This document shows positions 48,821 through 64,000 of a DNA stretch of 64,000 bases, in pieces (the stretch's first letter is position 1; each line of letters opens with the position of its first letter). A program made the translations under genes and the position numbers. Source of the DNA: Deferrisomatales bacterium (GTDB lineage Bacteria > Desulfobacterota > Deferrisomatia > Deferrisomatales > JACRMM01); assembly GCA_033551855.1 (NCBI GenBank), contig JAWSUI010000005.1, positions 1 through 64,000 of the forward strand, given 5' to 3'. Below the pieces are notes generated by a model. The model had not been told where the DNA came from, searched no databases, and was given only the letters and a program-made list of their open reading frames with translations.

Positions 48821-49423
48821 TCAGAGGAGACCGCTCGGCCCCTGCCGTGCCGGCCGCGCCTTGAGCTTCCGGCCGAAGCGCCGGCGGAGCTTCGCCACCT
48901 TGGGGGCGATCACCACACGGCAGTAGCCCTGGCCCGGGTTGCGGCGGTAGTACTGCCTGTGCTCGGCCTCCGCCGGGTAGAAGGCGTCGAAGGGTACGAC
49001 CTGGGTGACGAACCGAGCCCCCCACAGACCCTCTGCCTCGAGCTGCCCGATGACCTCCTCGGCCGTCGATCTCTGGGCCTCCGAGTGGTAGAAGACCGCG
49101 GAGCGGTACTGGCTGCCCACGTCCGCCCCCTGGCGGTCGGGCGTGGTCGGGTCGTGTACGGCGAAGAAGACCTCGAGGAGCTCGCGAAACGAGAGGATGG
49201 CGGGGTCGAAGACCACCTGCACGGCCTCGGCGTGCCCCGTGGCACCGGTACACACCTGGCGGTAGGTCGGACGAGGCACGGCGCCCCCCGCGTACCCGGG
49301 CACCACCTCCTCCACGCCGGCCAGCTCCTCGAAGAGCGGTTCGAGGCACCAGAAGCACCCTCCGGCCAGGGTGGCCGTCTCCCGCCGTGCCGTTCCCCCC
49401 TCGCCGCCCCTTGCCATCGTCAC
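48821..49423 (-). CDS. msrA: Peptide methionine sulfoxide reductase A
   Basis: AGGCFWC, TGHAE, RQGADVGSQYRS, AEAEH. Confidence 0.95.
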   Translation of the reverse strand: MTMARGGEGGTARRETATLAGGCFWCLEPLFEELAGVEEVVPGYAGGAVPRPTYRQVCTGATGHAEAVQVVFDPAILSFRELLEVFFAVHDPTTPDRQGADVGSQYRSAVFYHSEAQRSTAEEVIGQLEAEGLWGARFVTQVVPFDAFYPAEAEHRQYYRRNPGQGYCRVVIAPKVAKLRRRFGRKLKARPARQGPSGLL

Positions 49424-49614
49424 CGTCCCATCCCCTTTCTATCCCGCAAGCGCCCGCACACACGGCCGTGTCGCGCGGGGCCGTTGACCGGCGCGCGGGG
49501 CCATGCTATCCAGATCCCACCGTGACCCTGGAACCCAGCCCCCTCGACCCCTCTGCCGCCGTCCCCGGCGGCGGGAGCGCGCCCGCCCGCGAGACAGGCG
49601 TCCGCCCGCAGCGG

Positions 49615-50340
49615 ATGTCCTTCTATCCCACCCTCCCGGTGCCTCTCGGCCTCGAGGTCTCCGCCACCCCGCCCCACGAGTGCCCGTACCTGCCGGGCCG
49701 ATCCGCCGTGAGCCGGGGCTTCCGGTGCGACGCCGTGCCCGGGTGGGCGTACCAGGAGCTGATGGACGCCGGCTTTCGCCGCTCGGGCCGGGTCTTCTAC
49801 CAGATGGCGTGCCCGGGCTGCCGGAACTGTGTACCGCTCCGGGTTCCGGTGGCGGGATTTCGCCCCGGCAAGAGCCAGCGCAGGGTCTGGCGCCGCAACG
49901 GCAACCTGGAGATCAGCCTGGGCCCTCCGGAGCTCACGGGGGAGAAGGCCGACCTCTTCCGGCGCTACCTCGCCGCCCGCCACGACGGCCGGATGGCCGG
50001 TGACCCCCGGGAGCTGGAGGGCTTCCTGTACCGCTCGCCCACGGACACCCTTGAGACCTGCTACCGGACCCCCGAGGGCCGGTTGGTGGGGGTGGGCATC
50101 TGCGACCGGACCCCCACGGCCCTGAGCACGGTCTACTTCTACTTCGAGCCCGACTGCTCCCCGCGGGGACTCGGCATCTTCAGCAGCCTGGCGGAGATCC
50201 GGCTCGCCGAGGCCCTCGGCCTGACCCACTACTACTTCGGCTACTGGATCGAGGGTTGTCCCAGGATGGCGTACAAGGCGGGTTTCCGGCCCTGTGAGCT
50301 CCTGGGCACCGACGGCCTGTGGCGACCCTTCGGGGTTTGA
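49615..50340 (+). CDS. Arginyl/leucyl-tRNA-protein transferase (ATE/Bpt family)
   Basis: HECPYLPG, GFRRSG, C..C..C.PLR, YFGYWI..C..M.YK; alternative GTG start at 49522. Confidence 0.9.
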   Translation: MSFYPTLPVPLGLEVSATPPHECPYLPGRSAVSRGFRCDAVPGWAYQELMDAGFRRSGRVFYQMACPGCRNCVPLRVPVAGFRPGKSQRRVWRRNGNLEISLGPPELTGEKADLFRRYLAARHDGRMAGDPRELEGFLYRSPTDTLETCYRTPEGRLVGVGICDRTPTALSTVYFYFEPDCSPRGLGIFSSLAEIRLAEALGLTHYYFGYWIEGCPRMAYKAGFRPCELLGTDGLWRPFGV

Positions 50341-50959: not shown

Positions 50960-51927
50960 GGACCCTCCAGTGCAGCGCTGGTCGCGGGCAGGGCGAAGAG
51001 CTCCTCGGCGTTCCGGCCCAGGAGCCGCTCCAGGTGCCCGTCGGTGAGACCCGCCGCCTGGATCCGGCGCAACTCCCGGTCCCAGGCGTAGGGCAAGTGA
51101 CAAAAATCGGTCCCGTACAGGACCCGGTCCTCCCGGAACCGGGTCAGGGGAGGCGGCCGCAATCCCGGGAAGTATCCGGAGAGCATCATCGTCGTGTCGA
51201 GCCACAGATTGTCCCACCGGCAGCAAAGGGCGGCGTAGGCGTCGAACTCGTCCGCCCCCAGGTGCGGCACGCACAGGCGCAGCCGGGGGAAGTCCCGCAG
51301 GAGCCGCGCCACCTTGTCGACCGCGCAGTGGGTGTGGGGGTCGCAACGGTAGGCGGGGCTCTTGGGCTCTCGCCCCAGGTGGGCCACAAGGGGCCGGTCG
51401 GCGCCCTCGCACACTGCGCAGACCTCCCGCAGCCCCGGACCGTCCGGGTCGAAGCACTGGACGTGCTGATGGACCTTGACCCCGCCAAGCCCGAGGCCAA
51501 AGGCCTCCTCCAGGACGTCGGCGGCCCCCTCCTCTCCCGGGAACACGGTGGCGAGGCCGGTCAGGCGCGGGCTGCCCGCACACAGGCCCGCCACGTACCG
51601 GTTGAGCTCCCGTGCCATACCCGGCCGGTGGGCGTAGTGCAGGAGCACCAGGCGCTCGACCCCGCGTCCGAGGAGGAAGGCCACGAGCTCCTCGGACGAC
51701 AGGCGGTACCGCACCGGCCAGCCGTGGACGTCGAACCATCGCCGCACCGCCCCCATGAGCCCATCCGGGAAGACGTGCACGTGGGCGTCGGTCACGGGGG
51801 GGAGGCCCGCCGGCACCCGGGCCCCTTCGGGGTCGTCGAGGGCGGGAAGGCGAGAGGCGAGCGCCCCGGCCCAGTCGGGGGGAGACCCCGGCCCCGAGGG
51901 GAAGCGCGCCCGGTCGGACTCAGCCAC
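50956..51927 (-). CDS. Amidohydrolase_2 family metallohydrolase
   Basis: DAHVH, GVKVH, VPHLG, LYGTDF. Confidence 0.85.
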   Translation of the reverse strand: MAESDRARFPSGPGSPPDWAGALASRLPALDDPEGARVPAGLPPVTDAHVHVFPDGLMGAVRRWFDVHGWPVRYRLSSEELVAFLLGRGVERLVLLHYAHRPGMARELNRYVAGLCAGSPRLTGLATVFPGEEGAADVLEEAFGLGLGGVKVHQHVQCFDPDGPGLREVCAVCEGADRPLVAHLGREPKSPAYRCDPHTHCAVDKVARLLRDFPRLRLCVPHLGADEFDAYAALCCRWDNLWLDTTMMLSGYFPGLRPPPLTRFREDRVLYGTDFCHLPYAWDRELRRIQAAGLTDGHLERLLGRNAEELFALPATSAALEGP

Positions 51928-53719
51928 TCTTGTCCGTGCGCAGCACGGCCACGAAGGCCTCTTGCGGGATCTCCACCGAACCGAACATGCGCATCTTCTT
52001 TTTCCCCTCTTTCTGCTTCTCGAGGAGCTTGCGCTTGCGCGTGATGTCGCCACCGTAGCACTTGGCGGTGACGTCCTTGCGCACGGCCTGGATGTTCGTG
52101 CGGGCGATGATCGACCCGCCGACGGCGCCCTGGATGGGAATCTTGAACTGGTGGCGAGGGATCATCTCGGCAAGCTTCTCGCAGTAGTGGAGGGCCCGAG
52201 GCCGGGCCTTGTCCCGGTGCACCAGGTAGGAGAGCGCATCGACCCTCTCCCCGTTGACCAGGATGTCCACCTTGACGATGTCGCTGGGGCGGTACTCGAG
52301 CTCCTCCCAGTCGTAGGAGCCGTAGCCCCGGGTCACCGTCTTGAGTCGGTCGTGGAAGTCGAAGAGCACCTCGGCCAGGGGCATCTCGCTCACGACCTCG
52401 ACCCGGCCCACCGCCAGGTAATTCACGGTGAGGCTCGCCGCCCGGTACTCGCGGCACAGGTCCATCACCGTGCCCATGTACTTCTCGGGGCACAGGATGG
52501 TGGCCCGGATGAAGGGCTCTTCCACAGACTGGATCTTGACCGGGTCGGGCCAGAAGGTGGGGTTGTCCACCTCCACGAGCTTCCCGTCGGTGAGGGTGAC
52601 CTTGAAGTGCACCGAGGGGGCCGAGAGGATGAGCGACATCCCGAACTCCCGGGTCAGCCGCTCCTGGACCACGTCCAGGTGCAGGAGGCCGAGGAACCCG
52701 CAGCGGAACCCGTAACCCAGCGCGGCCGACGAGTCCTTCTGGTAGACGAGGGCGGCGTCGTTGAGGGAAAACTTCTCCAGGGCTCGGGTGAGGTCCTCGT
52801 ACTCGTCGGTCGACACCGGGTACATCGAGGAGAAGACCACGGGCTTCGCCGGCCGGTACCCGGGGATCGGCTCCGCCGTGGGGCGGGCCGCGTCGGTGAT
52901 CGTGTCGCCGATCTCCACGTCGCGGATCGTCTTGATGCCCGCGATCACGTACCCCACGGCCCCGGCGGAGAGCTCCTCCGTCTTGACCCTCCCCAGGCGC
53001 AGGAGGCCCACCTCCTCGACCTCGTGCTCCTTCTCCGTGTGCATGAAGCGAATCCGCCGGCCCGCGCGCAAGACCCCATCCCGGACCCGGCACTGGAGGA
53101 TGGCCCCCCGGTACGGGTCGTAATAGGCGTCGAAGATCAAAGCCTTGAGGGGGGCCTCGGGATCCCCCGTGGGCGGGGGCAGATGGGCCACCACTCCCTC
53201 GAGCACGTCTTCGACGCCGATGCCCTTCTTGGCCGAGATCGGGATCGCCTCGAAGGGGTCGAGCCCCAGGTCCGCGTCGATCTCCTCCCGGGCCCCTTCC
53301 ACGTCCGCGGCGGGGAGGTCGATCTTGTTGATCACGGGCAGGAGCCGCAGGTCGTACTCCAAAGCCAGGTAGAGGTTGGCCACCGTCTGGGCCTCCACGC
53401 CCTGGGTGGCGTCCACGATGAGAAGCGCCCCCTCGCAGGCCATCAGGGAGCGGCGCACCTCGTGGGAAAAATCCACGTGGCCCGGCGTGTCGATGAGGTT
53501 CAGCACATAGGGACGGCCGTCCCGGGCCGTGTAGCGGAGCGTGATGGTATTGCTCTTGATCGTGATGCCCCGCTCCCGCTCGATGTCCATGCTGTCCAGG
53601 AGCTGGTCCTGGAACTCCCGGTCCGACACCCCCCCGCAGGCCTGGATCAGCCGATCCGCCAGGGTGGACTTGCCGTGGTCGATGTGCGCGATGATGCAGA
53701 AGTTTCGGATCTCGTCCAT
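51920..53719 (-). CDS. lepA: Elongation factor 4
   Basis: AHIDHGKSTLAD, ERERGITIK, DTPGH, KCYGGDITRKRKLL. Confidence 0.97.
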   Translation of the reverse strand: MDEIRNFCIIAHIDHGKSTLADRLIQACGGVSDREFQDQLLDSMDIERERGITIKSNTITLRYTARDGRPYVLNLIDTPGHVDFSHEVRRSLMACEGALLIVDATQGVEAQTVANLYLALEYDLRLLPVINKIDLPAADVEGAREEIDADLGLDPFEAIPISAKKGIGVEDVLEGVVAHLPPPTGDPEAPLKALIFDAYYDPYRGAILQCRVRDGVLRAGRRIRFMHTEKEHEVEEVGLLRLGRVKTEELSAGAVGYVIAGIKTIRDVEIGDTITDAARPTAEPIPGYRPAKPVVFSSMYPVSTDEYEDLTRALEKFSLNDAALVYQKDSSAALGYGFRCGFLGLLHLDVVQERLTREFGMSLILSAPSVHFKVTLTDGKLVEVDNPTFWPDPVKIQSVEEPFIRATILCPEKYMGTVMDLCREYRAASLTVNYLAVGRVEVVSEMPLAEVLFDFHDRLKTVTRGYGSYDWEELEYRPSDIVKVDILVNGERVDALSYLVHRDKARPRALHYCEKLAEMIPRHQFKIPIQGAVGGSIIARTNIQAVRKDVTAKCYGGDITRKRKLLEKQKEGKKKMRMFGSVEIPQEAFVAVLRTDKSG

Positions 53720-53904: not shown

Positions 53905-55359
53905 TCAGATCAGGAACCGCACGGCCTCCCGGGCCAGGTCCACGATGCTGCCGGGGATGACGCCCAGGTACAGCACCCCGATGCCCGCCAGGACCGTGGC
54001 CAGGGCAGCGGAGGGTCCCCCCCGCAGCTCTTCCACGACCGGGGTCTCGGGGGCCTCTCGGAAGTACATGACCACGATGACCCGCAGATAGTAGTACACG
54101 CTCGCGGCCGAGTTGAGCACCCCCAGGATCGTGAGCCAGTAGTAGCCCTCGTTCACGGCCGCCTTGAAGATGAGGAACTTTCCGATGAAGCCGGCGGTCG
54201 GCGGGATCCCGGCCATGGAGAACATGAACACCGTCATCGCCAGGCCGAGAAGGGGAAACTTGAACCCCAGCCCCGAATAGGCCTCGAGCTCGGTGTTCTC
54301 CTGGCCGAACTTCCCCACCATGATCACGCACGCGAAGGCCCCCACGTTCATGAAGGCGTAGGCCAGGAGGTAGAAGAGCATGCCGGAGCTCGCCTCCGGG
54401 GTCCCCACCACGAGCCCGACCAGGAGGTACCCGGCGTGGGCGATGGAGGAGTAGGCCAGCATGCGCTTGACGTCGGTCTGGGCGATGGCGGCGAGGTTCC
54501 CCAGGGTCATCGTGAGCAGCGCGAGCACCCACAGGGCCCCGGACCACTCGCCGTGCAGCGCGGGGAACGCCGTGACGAAGACGCGCACGAAGGCGCTGAA
54601 CGCCGCCGCCTTCACCCCGGTCGCCATGAACGCCGTCACGGCGGTGGGGGCTCCCTGGTACACGTCGGGGGTCCAGGCGTGGAACGGCACCGCCGCCACC
54701 TTGAAGGCGAACCCCACCGTGATCAGGCCGACGCCGATGAGCGCCATCGGGGAGGCCGTGAGCCCCCGGACCTCGGCGAAGTGCCGCATCACGTCGTGGA
54801 GCTGCGTGCTCCCGCAGGCCCCGTAGATGAGCGCGATGCCGTACAGGAGGAACGCCGAGGCGAACGCCCCCAGGAGGAAGTACTTGTAGCTCGCCTCCGC
54901 TCCCCGCTCCGTCCGCAGGAAGCCGGCCAGGGCGTAGATGGCCAGGCTCATGGTCTCGAGGCCCAGGAAGATCACCAGCAGGTGCGTGCCCCCGGCCATG
55001 AGCATCATGCCCACCATGGCCAGCAGCACCAGCGCGTAGTATTCCCCGTGGTCCATCCGCTCGGAGCGCAGGTAGCCCTCGGAGAGGAGCAGGGTCAGCG
55101 CCCCCACCACGTAGATCACGAAGTAGAAAAACGCGGCGAAGCCGTCCGCGGCCAGCATCCGGGAGAACCCCAGGCGCTGCGGGCCGAAGAGGGCGGGGGT
55201 CAGCAGGGCCGCCACGACGATGCCGGCGATGCCCAGGTACGCCAGGTACCCCTTGCGGCCGGCCGGGTTGAAGGCCTCGGCCAGGAGGACCAGCAGGGCG
55301 GTCGCCGCGATCGCCATGTGGGGGGCCAAGGCCCCGAGGTCAGCCATCTGGAAGTCCAT
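53905..55359 (-). CDS. nuoN: Complex I subunit N
   Basis: EA..KYFLLGA, FKVAAVPFHAWTPDVYQGAP, KRMLAYSSIAH, YYYLR. Confidence 0.96.
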   Translation of the reverse strand: MDFQMADLGALAPHMAIAATALLVLLAEAFNPAGRKGYLAYLGIAGIVVAALLTPALFGPQRLGFSRMLAADGFAAFFYFVIYVVGALTLLLSEGYLRSERMDHGEYYALVLLAMVGMMLMAGGTHLLVIFLGLETMSLAIYALAGFLRTERGAEASYKYFLLGAFASAFLLYGIALIYGACGSTQLHDVMRHFAEVRGLTASPMALIGVGLITVGFAFKVAAVPFHAWTPDVYQGAPTAVTAFMATGVKAAAFSAFVRVFVTAFPALHGEWSGALWVLALLTMTLGNLAAIAQTDVKRMLAYSSIAHAGYLLVGLVVGTPEASSGMLFYLLAYAFMNVGAFACVIMVGKFGQENTELEAYSGLGFKFPLLGLAMTVFMFSMAGIPPTAGFIGKFLIFKAAVNEGYYWLTILGVLNSAASVYYYLRVIVVMYFREAPETPVVEELRGGPSAALATVLAGIGVLYLGVIPGSIVDLAREAVRFLI

Positions 55360-55377
55360 CGAGTTGCCTCCCTCTCC

Positions 55378-56943
55378 TCACTCGGCCGCGGAACGGCTCG
55401 GTTCCCGCCCAAGGATCAGGGCCACGGCGTCCTGGTGTCCCAGCTCCGCACACGCCACCCTCCGGGACTCCACCCGCTCCAACCACTGCTGCACCGAAGC
55501 GTCCATGGGACGCAGGAACACTGCGGGGTAGATCCCCATCCAGAAGGCCAGCACGACCATGGGGACGAGGTAGGCCCACTCCAGGCCCGTCAGGTCGGCC
55601 AGCCCCTTGTTCTTCTCGTTGTCCAGGGGGCCGAAGAAGACCCGCAACACCATCCACAGCATGTACCCCGCCGCCAGGATCACCCCGGACGCGGCAAAAA
55701 CCGCAGCGGTCTTGGAGGCCAGGAACGCGCCGACCATGATCAGGAACTCGCCCACGAACCCGTTCAGGCCCGGCAGCCCGATGGAGCTCATGGTGATCAC
55801 CACGAAGATCGCCGCGTACCACGGCATCTGCTTGGCCAGGCCGCCGAACTGGGCGATCTCCCTGGTGTGGCGGCGCTCGTAGATGACCCCGACCAGGAGG
55901 AACAGGGCGCCCGTCGACACCCCGTGGGCCAGGCTCTGGAAGATGCCTCCCTCGACGCCCTGGACGTTGAAGGCGAAGAGCCCCAGCATGACGAACCCGA
56001 GGTGCGACACCGAGCTGTAGGCCACCAGCTTCTTCACGTCGCTCTGGACCATGGCCACCAGGGCACCGTAGATGATGCCGATCACCGCGAGCACCATCAT
56101 GAAGGGCGCGAAGGCCTCGGCGGCGTTCGGGAAGAGCGGGATCGCGAAGCGCAGGAAGCCGTAGGTGCCCATCTTCAGGAGCACTCCCGCCAGGATCACG
56201 GACCCGGCCGTGGGCGCCTGGGTGTGGGCGTCCGGGAGCCAGGTGTGGAGCGGGAACATCGGCACCTTGATGGCGAAGGCCAGGGCGAAGGCGGCGAAGA
56301 GCCAGAACTGCACGTTGGGGGCGATGGGCAGGTCGTAGAGCCGCAGCACGTCGAAGGTCGCCCCGTAGCCCGCCTTGATGTTCAGGAAGTAGAGCGTCAG
56401 GATCGCGACCAGCATGAGCAGCGACCCCACCATGGTGTAGAGGAAGAACTTGATCGCCGCGTAGATCCGCTCCGCCCCTCCCCAGACTCCGATGAGGAAG
56501 TACATGGGGATGAGCATCGCCTCCCAGAAGATGTAGAAGAGGAAGAGATCAAGGGCCACGAGCGCCCCGAGCATCCCGGTCTCCAGTAGGAGGAAGAAGA
56601 ACATGTACTCCCGGACCTGCTTCTCGATGCTCCAGGACGACAGGATGCAGATCACCGAGAGGAAGGTGGTCAGGAGCACCAGGAAGAGGCTGATCCCGTC
56701 GATCCCGAGAAGGTACTGAATCCCCAGGCTCTCAATCCACGGGGCGCGCTCCACGAACTGCATGCCCCCCTCCCCGTTGTCGAAGCCGAACCACAGGGGC
56801 AGGCTCAGGGCGAAGGTCAGCAGCGTCACGAAGAGGGTCCAGCCGCGGAGCAGCCCCAGGCCCCCCCGGGGGAGGAAGAGCAGGACCACCGCCCCCGCCA
56901 ACGGCAGGAAGGTGATCAGGGTCAGGATCGGAAGCTCACCCAT
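55378..56943 (-). CDS. nuoM: Complex I subunit M
   Basis: FWEAMLIPM, KVPMFPLHTWLP.AH, LLKMG, GFVGEF. Confidence 0.96.
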   Translation of the reverse strand: MGELPILTLITFLPLAGAVVLLFLPRGGLGLLRGWTLFVTLLTFALSLPLWFGFDNGEGGMQFVERAPWIESLGIQYLLGIDGISLFLVLLTTFLSVICILSSWSIEKQVREYMFFFLLLETGMLGALVALDLFLFYIFWEAMLIPMYFLIGVWGGAERIYAAIKFFLYTMVGSLLMLVAILTLYFLNIKAGYGATFDVLRLYDLPIAPNVQFWLFAAFALAFAIKVPMFPLHTWLPDAHTQAPTAGSVILAGVLLKMGTYGFLRFAIPLFPNAAEAFAPFMMVLAVIGIIYGALVAMVQSDVKKLVAYSSVSHLGFVMLGLFAFNVQGVEGGIFQSLAHGVSTGALFLLVGVIYERRHTREIAQFGGLAKQMPWYAAIFVVITMSSIGLPGLNGFVGEFLIMVGAFLASKTAAVFAASGVILAAGYMLWMVLRVFFGPLDNEKNKGLADLTGLEWAYLVPMVVLAFWMGIYPAVFLRPMDASVQQWLERVESRRVACAELGHQDAVALILGREPSRSAAE

Positions 56944-56962
56944 CGGTCTCTCTCCTCCTACC

Positions 56963-58936
56963 CTAGAACGCAGCCATGAGCGCGTAGTAGGCGACCACCA
57001 CCACGGCCCCGAAGAGGATCGTCAGCGCGTAGCCCTGCACCCGGCCCGTCTGGAGCTGCCGTAGCCCGCCGCCCACCGTGCGCACCAGGTACCCGGTGCC
57101 GTTGACGATCCCGTCGATCACGACCACGTCCCAGAACGCCCACAGGAAGGTCGCCAGGGACAGGCAGGTGTCCACGAACACCGCCTGGTAGATCTCGTCC
57201 ACGTAGTACTTGTTGTTCAGAAGCTCGTACGCGCCGCGGCACTTCTCGGCGATCGCCTTCGGCAGGTCGGGCTTCAGGAGGTAGAGGAAGTAGGCGCCCA
57301 GGATGCCCAGGAGCGCGTACGCCACGCTCAGGAACATGAGCACGTACTCGACGGGATCGTGGTGGGCGGCCCCGTGCTCCCCCGCCGCGCCGGCCATTTC
57401 CGCCGCCGCGTGGACGCCGGCCTGGGACCCGACGTCGAGGACGGGCGCGAGCCAGTGGTGGAAGTGGTTTGCTCCCCCCAGGGCCGCGGGGATTCCGATC
57501 CAACCGCCCACCACCGAGAGCAGGGCCAGGATCCACAGAGGCCCGGTCATGCTCACGGGCGACTCGTGAACGTGGACCTCGTGATGGTCGAAGCGCTCCT
57601 TGCCGAAGAAGGTCATGAACACGAGGCGGAACATGTAGAACGCCGTGATGCCGGCCGCTATGAACCCCAGGAACCACTGAAACTGGAATCCGTTGGACCA
57701 CGCCATCCACAGGATCTCGTCCTTCGAGAAGAACCCGGCCAGGGGCGGAAGCCCCGCGATGGCGATGGTGGCCACGAGGAAGGTGAGATAGGTGTGGGGC
57801 ATGTGGGCCTTCAGGCCCCCCATCTTGCGCATGTCCTGCTCGCCGCCCATCCCGTGGATCACCGACCCGGACCCGAGGAACAGGCAGGCCTTGAAGAAGG
57901 CGTGGGTCATGAGGTGGAAGATGCCCGCCACGTACGCCCCCACCCCCATGGCCGTGAACATGTAGCCGAGCTGGCTCACGGTGGAGTAGGCGAGCACCTT
58001 CTTGATGTCGTTCTGGGTCAGGGCGATGGTCCCGGCGAAGAGGGCCGTGAGGGCCCCGATGGTCGCCACCACCGCCATGGTGGTCGGGGCCAGGGAGTAG
58101 AGCACCGCCGCCCGGCCGATCATGTAGACGCCCGCGGTGACCATGGTGGCCGCGTGGATCAGGGCCGATACGGGGGTCGGGCCCGCCATCGCGTCGGGGA
58201 GCCAGACGTAGAGGGGAATCTGGGCGCTCTTGCCCGTGGCTCCGACGAAGAGCAGGAGGGTGATCGCGGTCACCGCGGCCCCTCCGACCGCAAGGGTCGC
58301 CGGCGCCTGGGCCATGACGGTGCGGAAGTCCAGGGTGCCGAAGTACACGAAGATCAGGAACATGCCCAGCAGGAAGCCGAAGTCGCCGATCCGGTTGACG
58401 ATGAAGGCCTTCATGCCGGCCGCCGCCTTGGCGCGGTCCTCGAACCAGAATCCTATGAGGAGGTAGGAGCACAGCCCCACCCCTTCCCAACCCACGAACA
58501 TCACCAGGAAGTTGCTCCCCAGCACCAGGGTGAGCATCGCGAAGCTGAAGAGGTTGAGGTACGCAAAGTAGCGGGAGTAGCCCGGGTCGTGGTGCATGTA
58601 CCCCACCGAGTACACGTGGATCAGGAACCCCACGCCCGTGACCACCAGGATCATCACGGCGCTCAGGGGATCCAGCAGGTACGCGAGATCGACCTTCAGC
58701 GAGCCGGCGGCGATCCACTCGAACAGCGTCTGGGTCAGGACCCGCTCGGTCTCCGGGAGGGCCCGCAGGGTGAAGAACCCCCACACCGAGACCAGGAACG
58801 AGAGAAACACGCTCCCGCACGCGATCCAGTGGACGAGGCTCTTGGGCAGCCGCTTCCCGATGAGGCCGTTGATCAGGGCCCCCACCATCGGGAAGAGCGG
58901 GATGAGCCAGATGTACTCCCAGGTGTGTTCGTGCAT
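56963..58936 (-). CDS. nuoL: Complex I subunit L
   Basis: GWEGVG, NRIGD, GKSAQIPL..WLPDAMAGPTP, THAFFKA, C-terminal lateral helix. Confidence 0.96.
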   Translation of the reverse strand: MHEHTWEYIWLIPLFPMVGALINGLIGKRLPKSLVHWIACGSVFLSFLVSVWGFFTLRALPETERVLTQTLFEWIAAGSLKVDLAYLLDPLSAVMILVVTGVGFLIHVYSVGYMHHDPGYSRYFAYLNLFSFAMLTLVLGSNFLVMFVGWEGVGLCSYLLIGFWFEDRAKAAAGMKAFIVNRIGDFGFLLGMFLIFVYFGTLDFRTVMAQAPATLAVGGAAVTAITLLLFVGATGKSAQIPLYVWLPDAMAGPTPVSALIHAATMVTAGVYMIGRAAVLYSLAPTTMAVVATIGALTALFAGTIALTQNDIKKVLAYSTVSQLGYMFTAMGVGAYVAGIFHLMTHAFFKACLFLGSGSVIHGMGGEQDMRKMGGLKAHMPHTYLTFLVATIAIAGLPPLAGFFSKDEILWMAWSNGFQFQWFLGFIAAGITAFYMFRLVFMTFFGKERFDHHEVHVHESPVSMTGPLWILALLSVVGGWIGIPAALGGANHFHHWLAPVLDVGSQAGVHAAAEMAGAAGEHGAAHHDPVEYVLMFLSVAYALLGILGAYFLYLLKPDLPKAIAEKCRGAYELLNNKYYVDEIYQAVFVDTCLSLATFLWAFWDVVVIDGIVNGTGYLVRTVGGGLRQLQTGRVQGYALTILFGAVVVVAYYALMAAF

Positions 58937-58958
58937 CGCAGCGTCCTCTTTCGGGCGC

Positions 58959-59261
58959 TCAGCCCTTGAGCAGATCGAGCTCGTCCGCGTACACCGTGTG
59001 CCGGATCCGGTACAGCGACACGATGATAGCCAACCCCACCGCGGCCTCGGCCGCCGCCACCGTCATGACGAAGAGCACGTAGATGAGCCCCTCGGCGCTG
59101 TTGAGGTGGTCGGCGATGGCCACGAAGGCCAGGTTTACGCCGTTGAGCATGAGCTCGATGCACATGAGAAGGACGATGACGTTGCGCCGGAGCAGGACGC
59201 CCACGGCCCCCAGGGTAAAGAGCACTGCCGAGAGGGTCATCGAGTACTCGAGGGGAATCAT
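58959..59261 (-). CDS. nuoK: Complex I subunit K
   Basis: RRN, IELMLN, AAAEAAVGLA. Confidence 0.96.
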   Translation of the reverse strand: MIPLEYSMTLSAVLFTLGAVGVLLRRNVIVLLMCIELMLNGVNLAFVAIADHLNSAEGLIYVLFVMTVAAAEAAVGLAIIVSLYRIRHTVYADELDLLKG

Positions 59262-59312
59262 CTCATCCTCCGTTGCCCGTCGGGCCTGAACACAACGTCC
59301 GCCCCGCGGGGA

Positions 59313-59819
59313 TCACAGGCGCTTCTTCGCGAGGACAACCGCGCCGACGAGCCCCACCAGGAGCAGGATGCCGGCGGCCTCGAAGGGCAGCAGGTACGTG
59401 GTGAAGAGCTCGTCGGCGATGAGCTCCACGCTGCCCACCTGCTCCCGGGCCTCGAGGGTCATCCCCCCGGTCACCCCCGTGAGCCGGGAGGCCAGGGGCA
59501 CCACGAGGAGCACGAAGAGCAGGCCCGCCCAGACCAAGCCCACCAGCTTCGCCCCCGAGGGCCGCTTCCCGGCGCCTTCCTCCTTCCGGATGTCCAGGAG
59601 CATGATCACGAACACGATGAGCATCATCACGGCCCCGGCGTACACCATGAGCTGGATGGCGAAGATGAACTCGGCGTGGTGGAGCAGGTAGATCACCGCC
59701 AGGCTCACCATGGTCCCCACCAGGGACATGGCCGAGTGGATGGGGTTGCGGCAGGTCAGCACCCCCAGCGCGCCCAGCACCGCCAGACCCGCGAAGACGA
59801 AAAAGAGCGCTACGGCCAT
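59313..59819 (-). CDS. nuoJ: Complex I subunit J
   Basis: NPIHS, QLMVYAGAV, YLLPFE. Confidence 0.94.
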   Translation of the reverse strand: MAVALFFVFAGLAVLGALGVLTCRNPIHSAMSLVGTMVSLAVIYLLHHAEFIFAIQLMVYAGAVMMLIVFVIMLLDIRKEEGAGKRPSGAKLVGLVWAGLLFVLLVVPLASRLTGVTGGMTLEAREQVGSVELIADELFTTYLLPFEAAGILLLVGLVGAVVLAKKRL

Positions 59820-59842
59820 AGAGAACCTCCTCCCCTTTCGCC

Positions 59843-60244
59843 TCAGTTCCGGGCCAGCACGTCCCGGGTCATGTGGAACTCCTCCCGGGTGTACCCGCAG
59901 AACTCGTATTCGCGCGTGAGCTCGATGGCGTCCTTGGGGCACGCCTCCGCGCAGTACCCGCAGAAGATGCAGCGCGACACCTCCACCACGAACCGCTCCG
60001 GAAACCGGCGGCCGTCGGGGGTCTCCTTCGCCTCCACGGTGATCACGTCGGCCGGGCACACCGCCTCGCACAGGCCGCAGGCCACGCACTTGAGGCGTCC
60101 GTTCTCGCTCTTGAGCCGGTGCAGCCCTCGCCAGCGCTCTGCGGGCTCCCGCTTCTCCTCGGGATACTGGATGGTGACGGGCTTGGTGAAGAACCGCCCC
60201 AGGGTGAACGCCAGTCCCTTGAGGAGGGGGGTGATGACCGCCAT
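59843..60244 (-). CDS. nuoI: Complex I subunit I (2x[4Fe-4S])
   Basis: TIQYPEE, CVACGLCEAVCP, CIFCGYCAEACP. Confidence 0.95.
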   Translation of the reverse strand: MAVITPLLKGLAFTLGRFFTKPVTIQYPEEKREPAERWRGLHRLKSENGRLKCVACGLCEAVCPADVITVEAKETPDGRRFPERFVVEVSRCIFCGYCAEACPKDAIELTREYEFCGYTREEFHMTRDVLARN

Positions 60245-60278
60245 CTCGTCTCTCCTGTGCCGGCCCGCGCCGCGCCGG

Positions 60279-61286
60279 TTACGCGAACACCGTGTAGTAC
60301 ACGCCCACCACCACCACGTTGGCGATGGACACCGGGATCAGCACCTTCCACCCGAAGTTCATCACCTGGTCGTACCGGAATCGGGGGAAGGTGCCCCTCT
60401 CCCAGATGAAGAAGAAGACCAGCACGAACACCTTGAGGAGGAACCACACGACCTTCGGGACGAAGGGCACCTCGATGCCGAAGGGCAGGTGCCACCCGCC
60501 CAGGAAGAGGCAGGTGATCAGTGCGGCCAGCGAGATCGCGTGGGCATACTCGGCCATGAAGAACATGGCGAACTTCATGCTCGAGTACTCGATGTTGAAG
60601 CCGCAGGCGAGCTCGCTCTCGGCTTCCGGCATGTCGAAGGGCGTGCGGTTGATCTCGGCCAGCCCGCAGATCAGGTACAGGACGAAGGGAACCCAGAGGA
60701 TGGGGTTGAAGATGTTCCACATGTGGCTCTGGCCGTCCACGATCTGCACCAGGGAGAGGCTGCCGCTGACCATGATGACGCTGATCAGCGTGAATCCCAG
60801 GGCGAGCTCGTAACTGACCATCTGGGCCGCCGCCCGCAGGGAGCCCATCAGGCCGTACCGGTTGTTCGAGCCCCACCCCCCCAGGACGACGCCGAACTCG
60901 CCGAGGCTCGCCAACCCGAGAATGAAGATCAGCGCCACGTTGATGTCCGCCACCCTCATCGTGATTTCCCGCCCGAAGAGGGTGATCGACTCCCCGAAGG
61001 GGATCACCGAGACGATCAGGATGGCCGGGATGATGGAGAGGGCCGGCGCCAGGATGTACGCCACCCGGTCCGCGTTCGCCGGGACGATGTCCTCCTTGAA
61101 GAACCCCTTGATGCCGTCGGCGATGGGCTGGAGCAGGCCGAAGGGGCCCACGCGGTTGGGCCCGCGGCGCACCTGGATGCGGCCCAGCACCCGGCGCTCC
61201 AGCCAGGTGGTGTAGGCCACCATCAGCATGAGAACGCCGAAGACCACCACCACCTTGATCACGCTCTCGATCAGGAAGGCAACCAT
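60279..61286 (-). CDS. nuoH: Complex I subunit H
   Basis: ERR....Q.R.GP, LLQPIADG.K, SYE, NRTPFDMPEAESEL, PRFRYDQ. Confidence 0.97.
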   Translation of the reverse strand: MVAFLIESVIKVVVVFGVLMLMVAYTTWLERRVLGRIQVRRGPNRVGPFGLLQPIADGIKGFFKEDIVPANADRVAYILAPALSIIPAILIVSVIPFGESITLFGREITMRVADINVALIFILGLASLGEFGVVLGGWGSNNRYGLMGSLRAAAQMVSYELALGFTLISVIMVSGSLSLVQIVDGQSHMWNIFNPILWVPFVLYLICGLAEINRTPFDMPEAESELACGFNIEYSSMKFAMFFMAEYAHAISLAALITCLFLGGWHLPFGIEVPFVPKVVWFLLKVFVLVFFFIWERGTFPRFRYDQVMNFGWKVLIPVSIANVVVVGVYYTVFA

Positions 61287-61414
61287 GGGCTCCTCGCTTT
61301 GCTCGGCCGCGACGCGTGACGGGTGACGCGTGACGCGCTACCCCCTAGCCGCTGCCCGTCGCGCGTTGCTGTCGGCCGACGGCGTTTGGCCGTTGACCCT
61401 TCACTCTTCAACGT

Positions 61415-64000
61415 TCACACCTTCTCCACCCGCACCGCGCAGACCTTGTACTCGGGGATCTTGGCCGTGGGGCAGACCACCGGGTTGGTCAGCACGTTCA
61501 CCGGGGACTCGCTGTAGTGGAAGCTCAGGAACACGGTGCCGGGCGCGGTGCGGTCCACCACCTGTACCTTGGTCCGGATCTCGCCCCGGCGGGAGGACAC
61601 CTGGACGGTGTCGCCGGTCCGGAGTCCCAGCTTCTCCGCGTCGGCCGGGTGCACCTCCATGAAGCCCTCGGGAAAGCAGTCGTTGATGCGCCCGCACCGC
61701 CGGGTCATGGTGCCCGAGTGGTAGTGGGCGTGCTCCCGGCCGGTGGTGAGCAGGAGCGGGTACTCGGCGTCCGCCTTCTCGTCCGCCCCGCGGAACGCGA
61801 CCGGCGTGAAGAGCCCCTGGCCCCGGGTGAACTTGCCCACGTGGAGGATCGGCGTGCCCGGGTGATCCTTGCTCGGGCAGGGCCACTGGAGCCCCTCGCG
61901 CTCGAGCCGGGCGTAGTCCATGCCGGCGTAGCTGGGCGTCAGGCGGGCGATCTCGTCGAAGACCTCCGAGGGCCCTTCGTAGCTCATCTTGAGGCCCATG
62001 CGGCCGGCCAGGTCCTGAAAGATCTCCCAGTCCGGCCGGGACTCGCCCCGGGGCGCCACGGCCGCCCGCACCCGCTGGACTCTGCGCTCGGTGTTGGCGA
62101 AGGTGCCGTCCTTCTCGGCGAAGGAGCTGGCCGGGAGCACCACGTGGGCCTTGGCGGCGGTCTCGGTGAGGAAGATGTCCTGGACCACCAGGAGCTCGAG
62201 CTTCTCGAGCGCCTCTCCGACGTGGCTCAAGTCCGGGTCGGTGATCATGGGGTTCTCGCCCATGACGTAGAGGGCCTTGACCGTACCGTCCAGCGCGCCG
62301 TGGGTGGCCTCGGTCACGGTGAGCCCGGGCTTGCGGGGGACCTTGCGGCCCCAGGCCTCTTCGAACTTGGCCGCGGCCGCGTCGTCGTCCACCCGCTGGT
62401 ACCCGGTGAGGACGTTGGGGAGGCCCCCCATGTCGCAGGCGCCCTGCACGTTGTTCTGGCCCCGCAAGGGGTTCAGCCCCCCGCCCTCCACGCCGACGTT
62501 GCCGCACAGCATCGCGAGGTTGGCCAGGGCCTTGACGGCATCGGTGCCCTGGGAGTGCTGGGTGACGCCCATGCAGTAGAGGATCGATGCCGGCTTCGCG
62601 GCGGCGTAGAGGCGCGCGGCCTCCCGGAGGGACTCCGCGGGCACCCCGATGATCAGCTCCACCTTCTCCGGCGTGAAGTCGGCCAAGGACGCGGCGAGTT
62701 CCTCGAAGCCCTCGCACCGCTCGGCCACGTAGGCCGCGTCGTGGAGCCCCTCCGCGAGGATCACGTGCATCATCGCGTTGAGGACGGGGATGTTGTGGCC
62801 GGGTTCGATCTGCAGGAAGACGTTCGCGTAGTCCGTGAGCGGGATCCGGCGGGGATCGACCACGACCAGCTTGGCCCCCTTCCGGGTGATGGCTCGTTTG
62901 AGCACATCGCCGATGATCGGATGGTTCTCGGTGGTGTTGGAGCCGATGACCAGGAACGCCGCGGCCTTCTCGAAGTCGGCGATGGAGTTGGTCATCGCGC
63001 CGGAGCCGAAGCTGGTGGCCAGACCGGCCACGGTGGCGCTGTGTCAGAGTCGTGCGCAGTGATCGACGTTGTTGGTGCCGATCACCGCGCGGAAGAACTT
63101 CTGGAAGAGGTAGTTGTCCTCGTTCGTGCACCGGGCGCTCGCGAACCCTGCGACCGCGTCGGGGCCGCTCTCGTCCTTGATCTGCTGGAGCTTCGACGCG
63201 ACAAAACCGAGGGCCTCGTCCCAGGTGGCCTCCGCGAGCTGGCCGTTCTTCCGCACCAGGGGCACGGTGAGCCGGTCGGGGTGGTTGACGAACTCCCAGC
63301 CGAACCGGCCCTTCACGCACAGGCTCCCCCGGTTCGGGACCGCGTCGAAGTCGGTGGTGGTGACCCGCAGGACCTGGTCGTTCTTCGCGTTGAGCTCGAG
63401 CTGACACCCGACGCCGCAGTACCCGCACGTGGTGCGGACGCGGCTGGCCTGCCAGGTGCGTGCCTTGCGGGGCATCACCGAGTCGGTCAGCGCCCCCACC
63501 GGGCAGACCGAGAGGCACTCGCCGCAGGAGATGCACTCCACCCCCGGCACCGGGCCGATGTAGGAGTGGAACCCGTTGTCGACGATCTGGATGCACCCGA
63601 TGCCCTTGATCTCCTTGCAGGCGTGGACGCACCGGGCGCACAGCACGCATCGGTCGGGCCACTGCTGGATGAATGGGGAGACGTACCGGGGCACGGGGCG
63701 CTCGAAGGTCTCGGCCGCAAAGTCCTGCTTCGTGACGCCGAATTCCCAGGTCAGGTCCTGGAGGTCGCACTCGCCCCCCTTGTCGCAGACCGGGCAGTCC
63801 AGGGGGTGGCGCACGAGGAGGAGCTTGAGGACGTCGCGCCGCATCTCCCGGAGCTCCTCCGACTCGGTGCGCACGACGAGGCCCTCTCCGGCCGGGGTGT
63901 CGCAGGCGGTGATGGGCTTCCGATACCCCTCCACCTCCACCACGCACATGCGGCAGGACCCGATGGGGGCGAGCTTCTTGAGCCAGCACAGGGTCGGGAT
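61415..64000 (-). CDS. Selenocysteine-containing formate dehydrogenase alpha subunit (Mo/W-bisPGD) with NuoG-type N-terminal Fe-S module; 5' end outside the window; Sec codon 63044-63046
   Basis: Track ORFs 63044-63949 and 61415-63031 are in one frame joined by TGA: NNVDHCARL-U-HSATVAGL; IPTLC..GSCRMC..C, HPLDCPVC..GGEC, CVLCARC..AC, CISCGEC..VCP, TCGYCGVGC..LCVKG, PLRGQNNVQG. Confidence 0.93.
63015..63031 (-). promoter_or_regulatory. Bacterial SECIS element
   Basis: GTGGCC-GGTCT-GGCCAC hairpin after a 12-nt spacer from the UGA; same GGTCT apex as the E. coli fdhF SECIS. Confidence 0.85.

Follow-up and report, generated by a model that had tools for sequence, protein, structure and literature searches.

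A selenocysteine formate dehydrogenase in the nuoG slot of a complex I operon from a Deferrisomatales bacterium: a probable formate- and NADPH-fed proton pump

Whether a formate dehydrogenase (FDH) with a live catalytic site can serve as the structural NuoG subunit of complex I, and which electrons would then enter the complex, is the question raised by one operon of a Deferrisomatales bacterium (assembly GCA_033551855.1). The NuoG or 75-kDa subunit is seen as a burnt-out relative of FDH that carries, in some species, an orphan iron-sulphur (Fe-S) cluster, N7. The operon lies on the minus strand of contig JAWSUI010000005.1 (C5 in our numbering, in which G, L and f denote genomes, loci and families); the window, that is the whole stretch of DNA analysed, comprises bases 1–64000 of this contig, and the operon was read on beyond its end. 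The gene order is nuoA-B-C-D, a 652-amino acid (aa) flavoprotein (beta), an 890-aa selenocysteine (Sec) FDH (alpha) and nuoH-I-J-K-L-M-N (Table 1). The sequence supports alpha as an intact-looking Sec-FDH that occupies the place of NuoG in a genuine complex I operon, and we consider it probable that the product is a 13-subunit complex I with an NADP-type FDH heterodimer as its N-module, acting as a formate/NADPH:menaquinone proton pump. The observations behind this reading are gene order, motifs, conservation among relatives and accessory genes.

NuoA, B, C, D, H, I, J, K, L, M and N were all found, each with its own family as best match; NuoH, I, K, L, M and N pass the curated cut-offs and NuoD passes TIGR01962, with NuoA and NuoJ falling below. 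Successive genes are 17–167 nt apart or overlap by 10 nt. The alpha frame begins at C5:64087, which is 87 nt outside the window, and nuoA, B, C and D, which a previous reading of the sequence alone (the sequence-only reading) had proposed to look for upstream, lie further on. That reading had also placed alpha 128 nt before nuoH on the same strand without an intervening terminator, as our measurements of the gap (61287–61414) agree: none of seven terminator-like hits (5.3 expected) falls inside it, it folds worse than its shuffles (z +1.12), and it contains neither a terminator-like nor a promoter-like site that could mark a transcript boundary between FDH and nuoH. A single sigma70-like promoter was found in 16 kb, just before nuoA, which is weak evidence because 1.0 was expected by chance. 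Short tandem repeats of 7–9 nt occur in several operon gaps (window 61300–61345, nuoB–nuoC and beta–alpha).

NuoD carries the motifs GPQHPATHG and RMDY, which we take to be quinone-site motifs, and NuoB has adjacent cysteines. Inspection of NuoD revealed no CxxC ligands for a NiFe site, as the sequence-only reading had supposed; since NuoD lacks these and passes NuoD families, the electron acceptor should be quinone, and identity with formate hydrogenlyase was ruled out by the missing NiFe ligands. No nuoE or nuoF is present in the operon, where the sole NuoF part is the 4Fe-4S domain forming the N-terminus of beta. Hence, the earlier suggestion that NADH might enter through an upstream nuoEF fails, and the partner of alpha is a GltD-like flavoprotein of predicted NADP(H) type. 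Because NuoE/F are absent and the NuoG appears live, the operon falls outside the 14-subunit complex I, yet it should work like complex I with a different input.

Alpha passes the FDH alpha family TIGR01591 (875 bits, cut-off 666) and misses the NuoG family TIGR01973 (440 bits, cut-off 470); its best solved relative over the full length is FdsA of Rhodobacter capsulatus (6TG9, 821 bits), against 204–209 bits for E. coli and Thermus NuoG. The 890-aa frame includes one internal TGA, at codon 348 in the context HCARL-U-H. Sec140, His141, Arg333 and Lys44 of E. coli FdhF align with U348, H349, R542 and K259 of alpha, positions at which E. coli NuoG has G, E, A and R, and the four cysteines of the FdhF proximal cluster align with C221, C224, C228 and C257. 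Motifs for five Fe-S clusters are complete (N1b, N5, N4, the bridging A2 and N7), A2 being C157/185/188/191, a cluster that E. coli NuoG lacks. Cluster A1 is equivalent to N7; in Thermus complex I, N7 survives as a remnant cut off from the chain, and in FDH it is A2 that connects it (PMC7171172). These matches bear out the NuoG-type Fe-S module and the full FDH set that had been claimed; of the further claim, that a competent FDH takes the place of the structural NuoG, the structural part gains from the slot, loop and docking model described below, and catalytic competence is predicted at the level of motifs. The in-frame UGA is accompanied by a candidate selenocysteine insertion sequence (SECIS) hairpin, whose short stem recurs in most relatives but is confounded by codons. 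A single-sequence AlphaFold model of alpha was unusable (mean predicted local distance difference test, pLDDT, 35.6).

In beta, a NuoF-type 4Fe-4S domain is fused to a GltD-like one that carries the motif GGGNVA...YRRS, and by its sequence beta is a putative NADP(H)-type flavoprotein partner of alpha in place of NuoE/F. We take it to be SfrB-like after the description in PMC13040438, likeness to the Geobacter and Moorella proteins being known from descriptions only. Close homologues labelled Deferrisomatales bacterium are 77–83% identical, and the name given to many homologues by the Joint Genome Institute (JGI) is formate dehydrogenase beta subunit, two of the 120 listed bearing the addition (NADP+). 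The GxGxxA motif has been proposed to bind NADP(H) (PMC7483475), and in the Moorella NADP-FDH the alpha is a 96-kDa protein and the beta is the product of sfrB2 (PMC13040438).

The assembly (100% complete, 4.2% contaminated) contains the Sec insertion and cofactor genes that were sought, namely selA, selB, selD, two tRNA-Sec calls, moaA and fdhD, together with mqnC for menaquinone synthesis. A Wood-Ljungdahl cluster on contig C3 has fhs and acetyl-CoA synthase by family search, neighbouring acs genes being read from their sequences. Among six molybdopterin-family matches, FDH motifs or the NuoG loop occur only in this alpha; the host also has molybdoenzymes resembling respiratory reductases (labels by sequence reading). 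No second FDH or NuoG-type protein was found in the assembly, in keeping with the expectation that there is no separate nuoG, and pyruvate formate-lyase was not found in the genome with PF02901. NuoG-like genes on C16 and C26 were rejected as a separate nuoG, encoding only 206 and 281 aa without the loop. Two NuoE/F/short-G-like clusters lie outside the nuo operon (C16:15331–23986 and C26:19095–22543), one sharing its neighbourhood with fdhD and with MvhD-like and HdrA-like genes, and the second having succinyl-CoA synthetase-like genes next to it.

In the mechanism that we propose, alpha would act as the structural NuoG, docking on NuoI and NuoD through the loop at cluster N5. Electrons from formate would pass from the Sec-ligated molybdenum or tungsten site through A1 (N7), A2, A3 (N4), A4 (N5), NuoI and N2 to menaquinone; those from NADPH would enter by the FAD and clusters of beta and join the same wire at N1b, and protons would be pumped by NuoL, M, N and H. 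The main job would probably be to oxidise formate, either taken up or produced by the Wood-Ljungdahl pathway run oxidatively, to reoxidise NADPH and to conserve energy; formate and NADP(H) could also equilibrate. Assembly, activity, the metal, the quinone, NADP specificity and direction are all predictions of this scheme. With potentials from PMC9304861, the computed yield from formate to menaquinone is -67 kJ/mol, or about 3.8–4.6 H+, and that from NADH to menaquinone 40 kJ/mol, or 2.3–2.7 H+.

The argument for docking begins with the loop at the His-ligated cluster N5/A4, which we defined by the pattern H-P-x-D/E-C-P-x-C-D/E, with a few variants tolerated. A leucine at this loop position makes the FDH dimer contact and is not conserved in complex I (PMC7171172); soluble FDHs mostly have this dimer-forming Leu where alpha has Pro99. 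In a first alignment (L033 and L037 omitted as duplicates; two short FdhF rows lack this domain), the loop was present in 74/74 NuoG or alpha rows from nuo operons against 1/16 free FDH-type alphas. A second set comprised 60 matches new to the analysis, hand-picked by FDH similarity from the 150 listed of 337 matches in an alpha search of 401 genomes, 252 of which had a match; some are in genomes used earlier, and for three the distance to nuoH had already been noticed. This set contained 15 alphas with loop and nuo linkage, seven with loop and unlinked, none linked without the loop and 38 with neither, so that the loop was found in 15/15 nuo-linked and 7/45 unlinked alphas, and Pro99 alone in 15/15 and 12/45. 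The p-value for this association is given no weight because kin are not independent. Eleven of the 15 linked alphas are intact, and five of these follow nuoN, three with beta between. Four of the seven unlinked loop-bearers come from genomes with no NuoG in the nuoD–nuoH stretch (G066, G131, G102 and G082), as does the unlinked loop-bearing alpha of G042 in the first set. The orphan FDH alphas L029/L120 (G042:C28), L190 (G082:C83) and L159 (G102:C23), intact and loop-bearing, come from genomes in which the nuoH locus carries no NuoG.

A docking model of four chains (alpha 1–300, NuoI, NuoD and NuoC) scored 0.79, against 0.59 for the best of three controls; the docking mark was reached by 116/157 solved complexes and 2/215 mismatched pairs. 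At least 93% of contacts are shared between runs, and the partner chains have a pLDDT of 83 or more. The predicted interface is centred on alpha residues 91–121, with Pro99 touching NuoI 54/56/58/103 and NuoD 307/311. A structural role for alpha as NuoG is indicated by all three lines, namely the slot, the complex I-type loop and the docking model.

The arrangement recurs in relatives, which were surveyed among the genomes of this phylum. A NuoH search matched 161/221 genomes, and 80 nuoH loci were taken from the upper part of the 150 listed of 217 matches, a sample biased towards this NuoH. Fifteen of these loci have an intact alpha directly before nuoH and four directly before nuoA, 19 have a degenerate alpha after the beta gene, eight have no alpha in the stretch, and 34 have a NuoG of nuoEF-type or other operons, the FDH site being present in 0/34. 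In the flanks (1.5 kb) of the best 30 matches from 61 genomes, beta–alpha and/or alpha–nuoH–nuoI were found in family and order relatives at 67–89% identity. All samples combined, a nuo-linked Sec/Cys-His alpha occurs in 37 genomes besides this one (seven order relatives being checked for the Sec-His motif only), representing 12 family codes, and the synteny proposed in the sequence-only reading is thereby extended. In 12 families the UGA and the catalytic set are kept, Cys variants having their Cys at that codon. Alpha and nuoH are about 7–18 nt apart in 9/18 intact slot loci (two of the 18 being duplicates), and in other families alpha also sits just before nuoA or after nuoN. The simplest forms are G062 (L090, C22) and G280 (L151, C56), which have nuoABCD, Sec-FDH alpha and nuoH with nuoD, alpha and nuoH within 6–25 nt; there was no match to the first 85 beta residues and no full-length beta was found with this query, and these operons are candidate formate-only pumps. 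The gene just upstream in L090 and L151 is presumably related to sulfate adenylyltransferase, which it resembles.

Most of the dead alphas retain about 50% identity to this alpha in the Fe-S module and 17–43% in the catalytic domain, two recent losses (L039 and L065) being closer to it. Since degenerate alphas keep the Fe-S module in the slot, the slot appears to select for the wire. The site of L039 (G005) is half decayed (Cys, SARRCH, Arg to Ala), and this genome encodes another Sec-FDH at a different place. In L050 (G223) and L056 (G194), where the slot alpha is dead, a short Sec-FdhF stands directly before nuoA; catalysis and docking may here be divided between two genes. Further variants include nuoE/nuoF-like genes and an extra NuoG-like gene in the slot before a degenerate alpha in L155 (G261) and L146 (G356), with a GltD insert in the extra gene of L155 and Trp at the Sec position in L146. 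Family f49 (L138 in G066:C7, L139 in G131:C16, L082 and L083) has HdrA-like, MvhD-like and HdrD-like genes, labelled by reading, in the nuoD–nuoH slot, and in L083 a Sec-FDH alpha sits between this cluster and nuoH. Alpha matches in two pieces in L028 (G016), a possible frameshift or assembly error.

Docking of alpha as NuoG has to be weighed against a soluble NADP-dependent FDH of the Moorella kind, merely co-transcribed with a headless 11-subunit complex I that takes its electrons from ferredoxin or a different carrier. An FDH of this kind exists in Moorella alongside a headless complex distinct from it (PMC13040438), the beta–alpha pair moves around, being unlinked in f49, f26 and G102, and the Wood-Ljungdahl pathway needs the FDH whichever reading is right. 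This alternative leaves the replacement of the dimer Leu by a complex I-type loop, the absence of nuo linkage in all 38 loop-less alphas of the second set, the persistence of dead alphas in the slot and the docking model to be explained otherwise, and several unlinked loop-bearers come from genomes without NuoG at the nuoH locus (the five named above). We judge it improbable.

Several points nonetheless tell against the formate- and NADPH-fed pump. The loop pattern was defined only after the first alignment had been viewed, and the relatives compared are not independent. Seven alphas with the loop, or eight if the near-miss L192 is counted, have no nuo genes nearby, and in four free FDHs Pro99 occurs within another type of loop; hence, the loop is no proof of docking. 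The docking model exceeded its best control by exactly the 0.20 margin, in a job unlike the calibration and with no soluble FDH among the controls, and its pass may be memory of complex I, since that structure has been solved many times. Acetyl-CoA synthase is present in 35/37 genomes with an intact alpha and in 20/23 with a degenerate one; as it does not track the intact site, it does not explain retention. The fold energy of the candidate SECIS is not better than that of shuffles (z -1.33 and -0.83; E. coli control -0.45). Finally, a second complex I-like operon (C30:14394–26528), with no N-module and two NuoL-like genes before nuoM and nuoN, could do the pumping.

The same docked and active enzyme might also run in reverse, the proton-motive force driving electrons from menaquinol (and NADPH) to CO2 and so supplying formate for Wood-Ljungdahl fixation or syntrophic export. 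This alpha is the only FDH found and is accompanied by a Wood-Ljungdahl cluster, four protons at about 180 mV roughly match the 67 kJ/mol needed, and the Moorella homologue reduces CO2 with NADPH (PMC13040438). On the other side, the respiratory-reductase-like molybdoenzymes and menaquinone synthesis of the host fit the oxidative direction, and NADPH alone suffices for CO2 reduction without a membrane arm; sequence cannot tell direction, and we hold reversal as the main job to be unlikely. That alpha docks as NuoG with an FDH site that is vestigial or rarely made, leaving an NADPH:menaquinone oxidoreductase, is very improbable: reading UGA as a stop would give a 347-aa piece with all five cluster motifs, many kin tolerate loss of the site, G005 of the same family among them, and the SECIS energy is unremarkable, but the UGA and catalytic set are conserved over 12 families, in which Cys variants use this codon, the genome has sel genes, the search for another FDH to serve the Wood-Ljungdahl pathway found none, and several kin with dead alphas own a separate intact FDH (G005, G033, G047, G162 and G223).

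The origin of the arrangement was approached with trees made with faster models, whose deep branches lack resolution. In the NuoD+NuoH tree, 34 rows, nearly all with a beta gene, form one clade (Shimodaira–Hasegawa approximate likelihood ratio test, SH-aLRT, 99) within which live alphas are interspersed with dead ones, and alpha state changes nine times over the whole tree, three rows being scored intact by inference from an unlinked alpha. A full-length FastTree phylogeny places 39 beta-type and related slot alphas in one clade among free FDHs (SH 99). With the loop removed, the Fe-S module groups slot alphas with two NuoG rows from nuoEF operons (SH-aLRT 97). The catalytic-domain tree, from which six divergent rows were dropped, is poorly resolved; a single clade of all complex I-linked rows is compatible with it (approximately unbiased, AU, test p 0.63), and so is a topology uniting slot alphas with free FDHs (AU p 0.26). 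It is possible, and we suggest it tentatively, that the operon preserves alive an earlier condition, with NuoG catalytically active and the complex a formate:menaquinone proton pump, seen at its purest in G062 and G280, and that the dead alphas of kin, perhaps also the NuoG of nuoEF-type operons in this phylum, represent repeated losses of the site from an ancestor of that kind. Later recruitment or a chimera would also be compatible with these trees.

The canonical 14-subunit complex I and this operon have in common the order of their genes, the Q- and P-modules and, encoded between nuoD and nuoH, a subunit of NuoG fold with the N1b/N4/N5/N7 motifs and the N5 loop; the operon differs in lacking NuoE/F and in a slot protein that keeps the FDH site, the catalytic part of canonical NuoG being described as lost (PMC3144371), and the bridging cluster. 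An alpha of about 96 kDa and a GltD-type beta are common to the Moorella thermoacetica NADP-FDH (beta sfrB2; alpha sfrA2+fdhF3) and Geobacter SfrAB (PMC13040438, PMC7483475), and a GltD-like beta with the NADP(H)-type GxGxxA beside a NuoG-like alpha is what we find here; by description those enzymes stand alone, whereas here the pair lies inside a nuo operon and alpha has the complex I loop. FdsABG of R. capsulatus (6TG9), an NAD-dependent FDH, shares the five cluster motifs, but is soluble, has a NuoE/F-like diaphorase and turns A4 towards its dimer partner via Leu122 (equivalent to Pro99 here). Nuo-Bfu (Schut et al. 2022, PMC9304861) is likewise a predicted menaquinone-reducing complex I of anaerobes with a changed mid-operon input module, although its NADH/ferredoxin core BfuBC (NuoE/F-like) is missing from this operon. 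Formate hydrogenlyases (E. coli FHL; Moorella Fdh-Ech) similarly feed a complex I-like membrane arm from an FdhF-type enzyme, but make H2 at a NiFe site, for which NuoD here lacks the CxxC ligands. Exchange of the N-module for another donor module is shared with Fpo/Fqo and Campylobacter complex I (PMC3144371); their donors are F420H2 or flavodoxin, the available text describes no molybdenum or tungsten catalytic site in them, and Campylobacter NuoG is predicted to keep cluster A2 (PMC7171172). A full-text literature search returned no description of an FDH in the nuoG slot or of this operon, including the accessible parts of PMC4758237, PMC3543383, PMC13186404, PMC2885270, PMC7325909, PMC4046663, PMC7117926, PMC7894505 and PMC2825233; the word formate is absent from the accessible part of PMC4453560, and an earlier mention of sfrAB-like genes within nuo clusters may exist in Coppi 2007, Pereira 2011, Chadwick 2018 or the supplements of these papers.

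If the formate- and NADPH-fed pump is correct, it represents a new input module for complex I, with direct proton-pumping oxidation of formate in the cytoplasm without an NADH step, and a reversible route by which the proton-motive force could drive CO2 reduction. The arrangement is common in a widespread group of anaerobes with acetyl-CoA synthase, and natural pairs of closely related genomes, one with a live and one with a dead site (families f1, f15, f50 and f56), make the loss of NuoG catalysis directly testable. It may reveal the earlier mode of action of NuoG, a subunit that is normally inactive.

Table 1. Positions of the operon genes and of elements within and between them, in order of transcription; window and C5 indicate the numbering used.
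Feature	Position	Strand	Remarks
nuoA	C5 68879-68523	-	beyond window
nuoB	C5 68532-68032	-	beyond window
nuoC	C5 67938-67459	-	beyond window
nuoD	C5 67409-66231	-	beyond window
beta subunit, 652 aa	C5 66213-64255	-	NuoF-type 4Fe-4S domain and GltD-like FAD/NADP(H) domain
alpha, 890-aa Sec formate dehydrogenase	window 61415..64000	-	nuoG slot; bis-PGD catalytic set; full frame 64087-61415 on C5
complex I-type loop at His-ligated cluster N5/A4	window 63767..63808	-	HPLDCPVCDKGGEC; Pro99; predicted contact with NuoI and NuoD
in-frame UGA and candidate SECIS hairpin	window 63015..63046	-	UGA at 63046-63044; GGUCU loop, offset as in E. coli fdhF
alpha–nuoH gap	window 61287..61414	-	128 nt; no terminator-like or promoter-like site
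nuoH	window 60279..61286	-	NCBIfam family match
nuoI	window 59843..60244	-	NCBIfam family match
nuoJ	window 59313..59819	-	best family NuoJ, below cut-offs
nuoK	window 58959..59261	-	NCBIfam family match
nuoL	window 56963..58936	-	NCBIfam family match
nuoM	window 55378..56943	-	NCBIfam family match
nuoN	window 53905..55359	-	NCBIfam family match

Directly downstream of nuoN, window 51920–53719 encodes what we take to be a lepA-like GTPase, and further downstream a frame at 49387–50340 is presumably arginyl/aspartyl transferase-like. Elsewhere in the host genome, Mrp-like antiporter clusters are present on C57 and C66.

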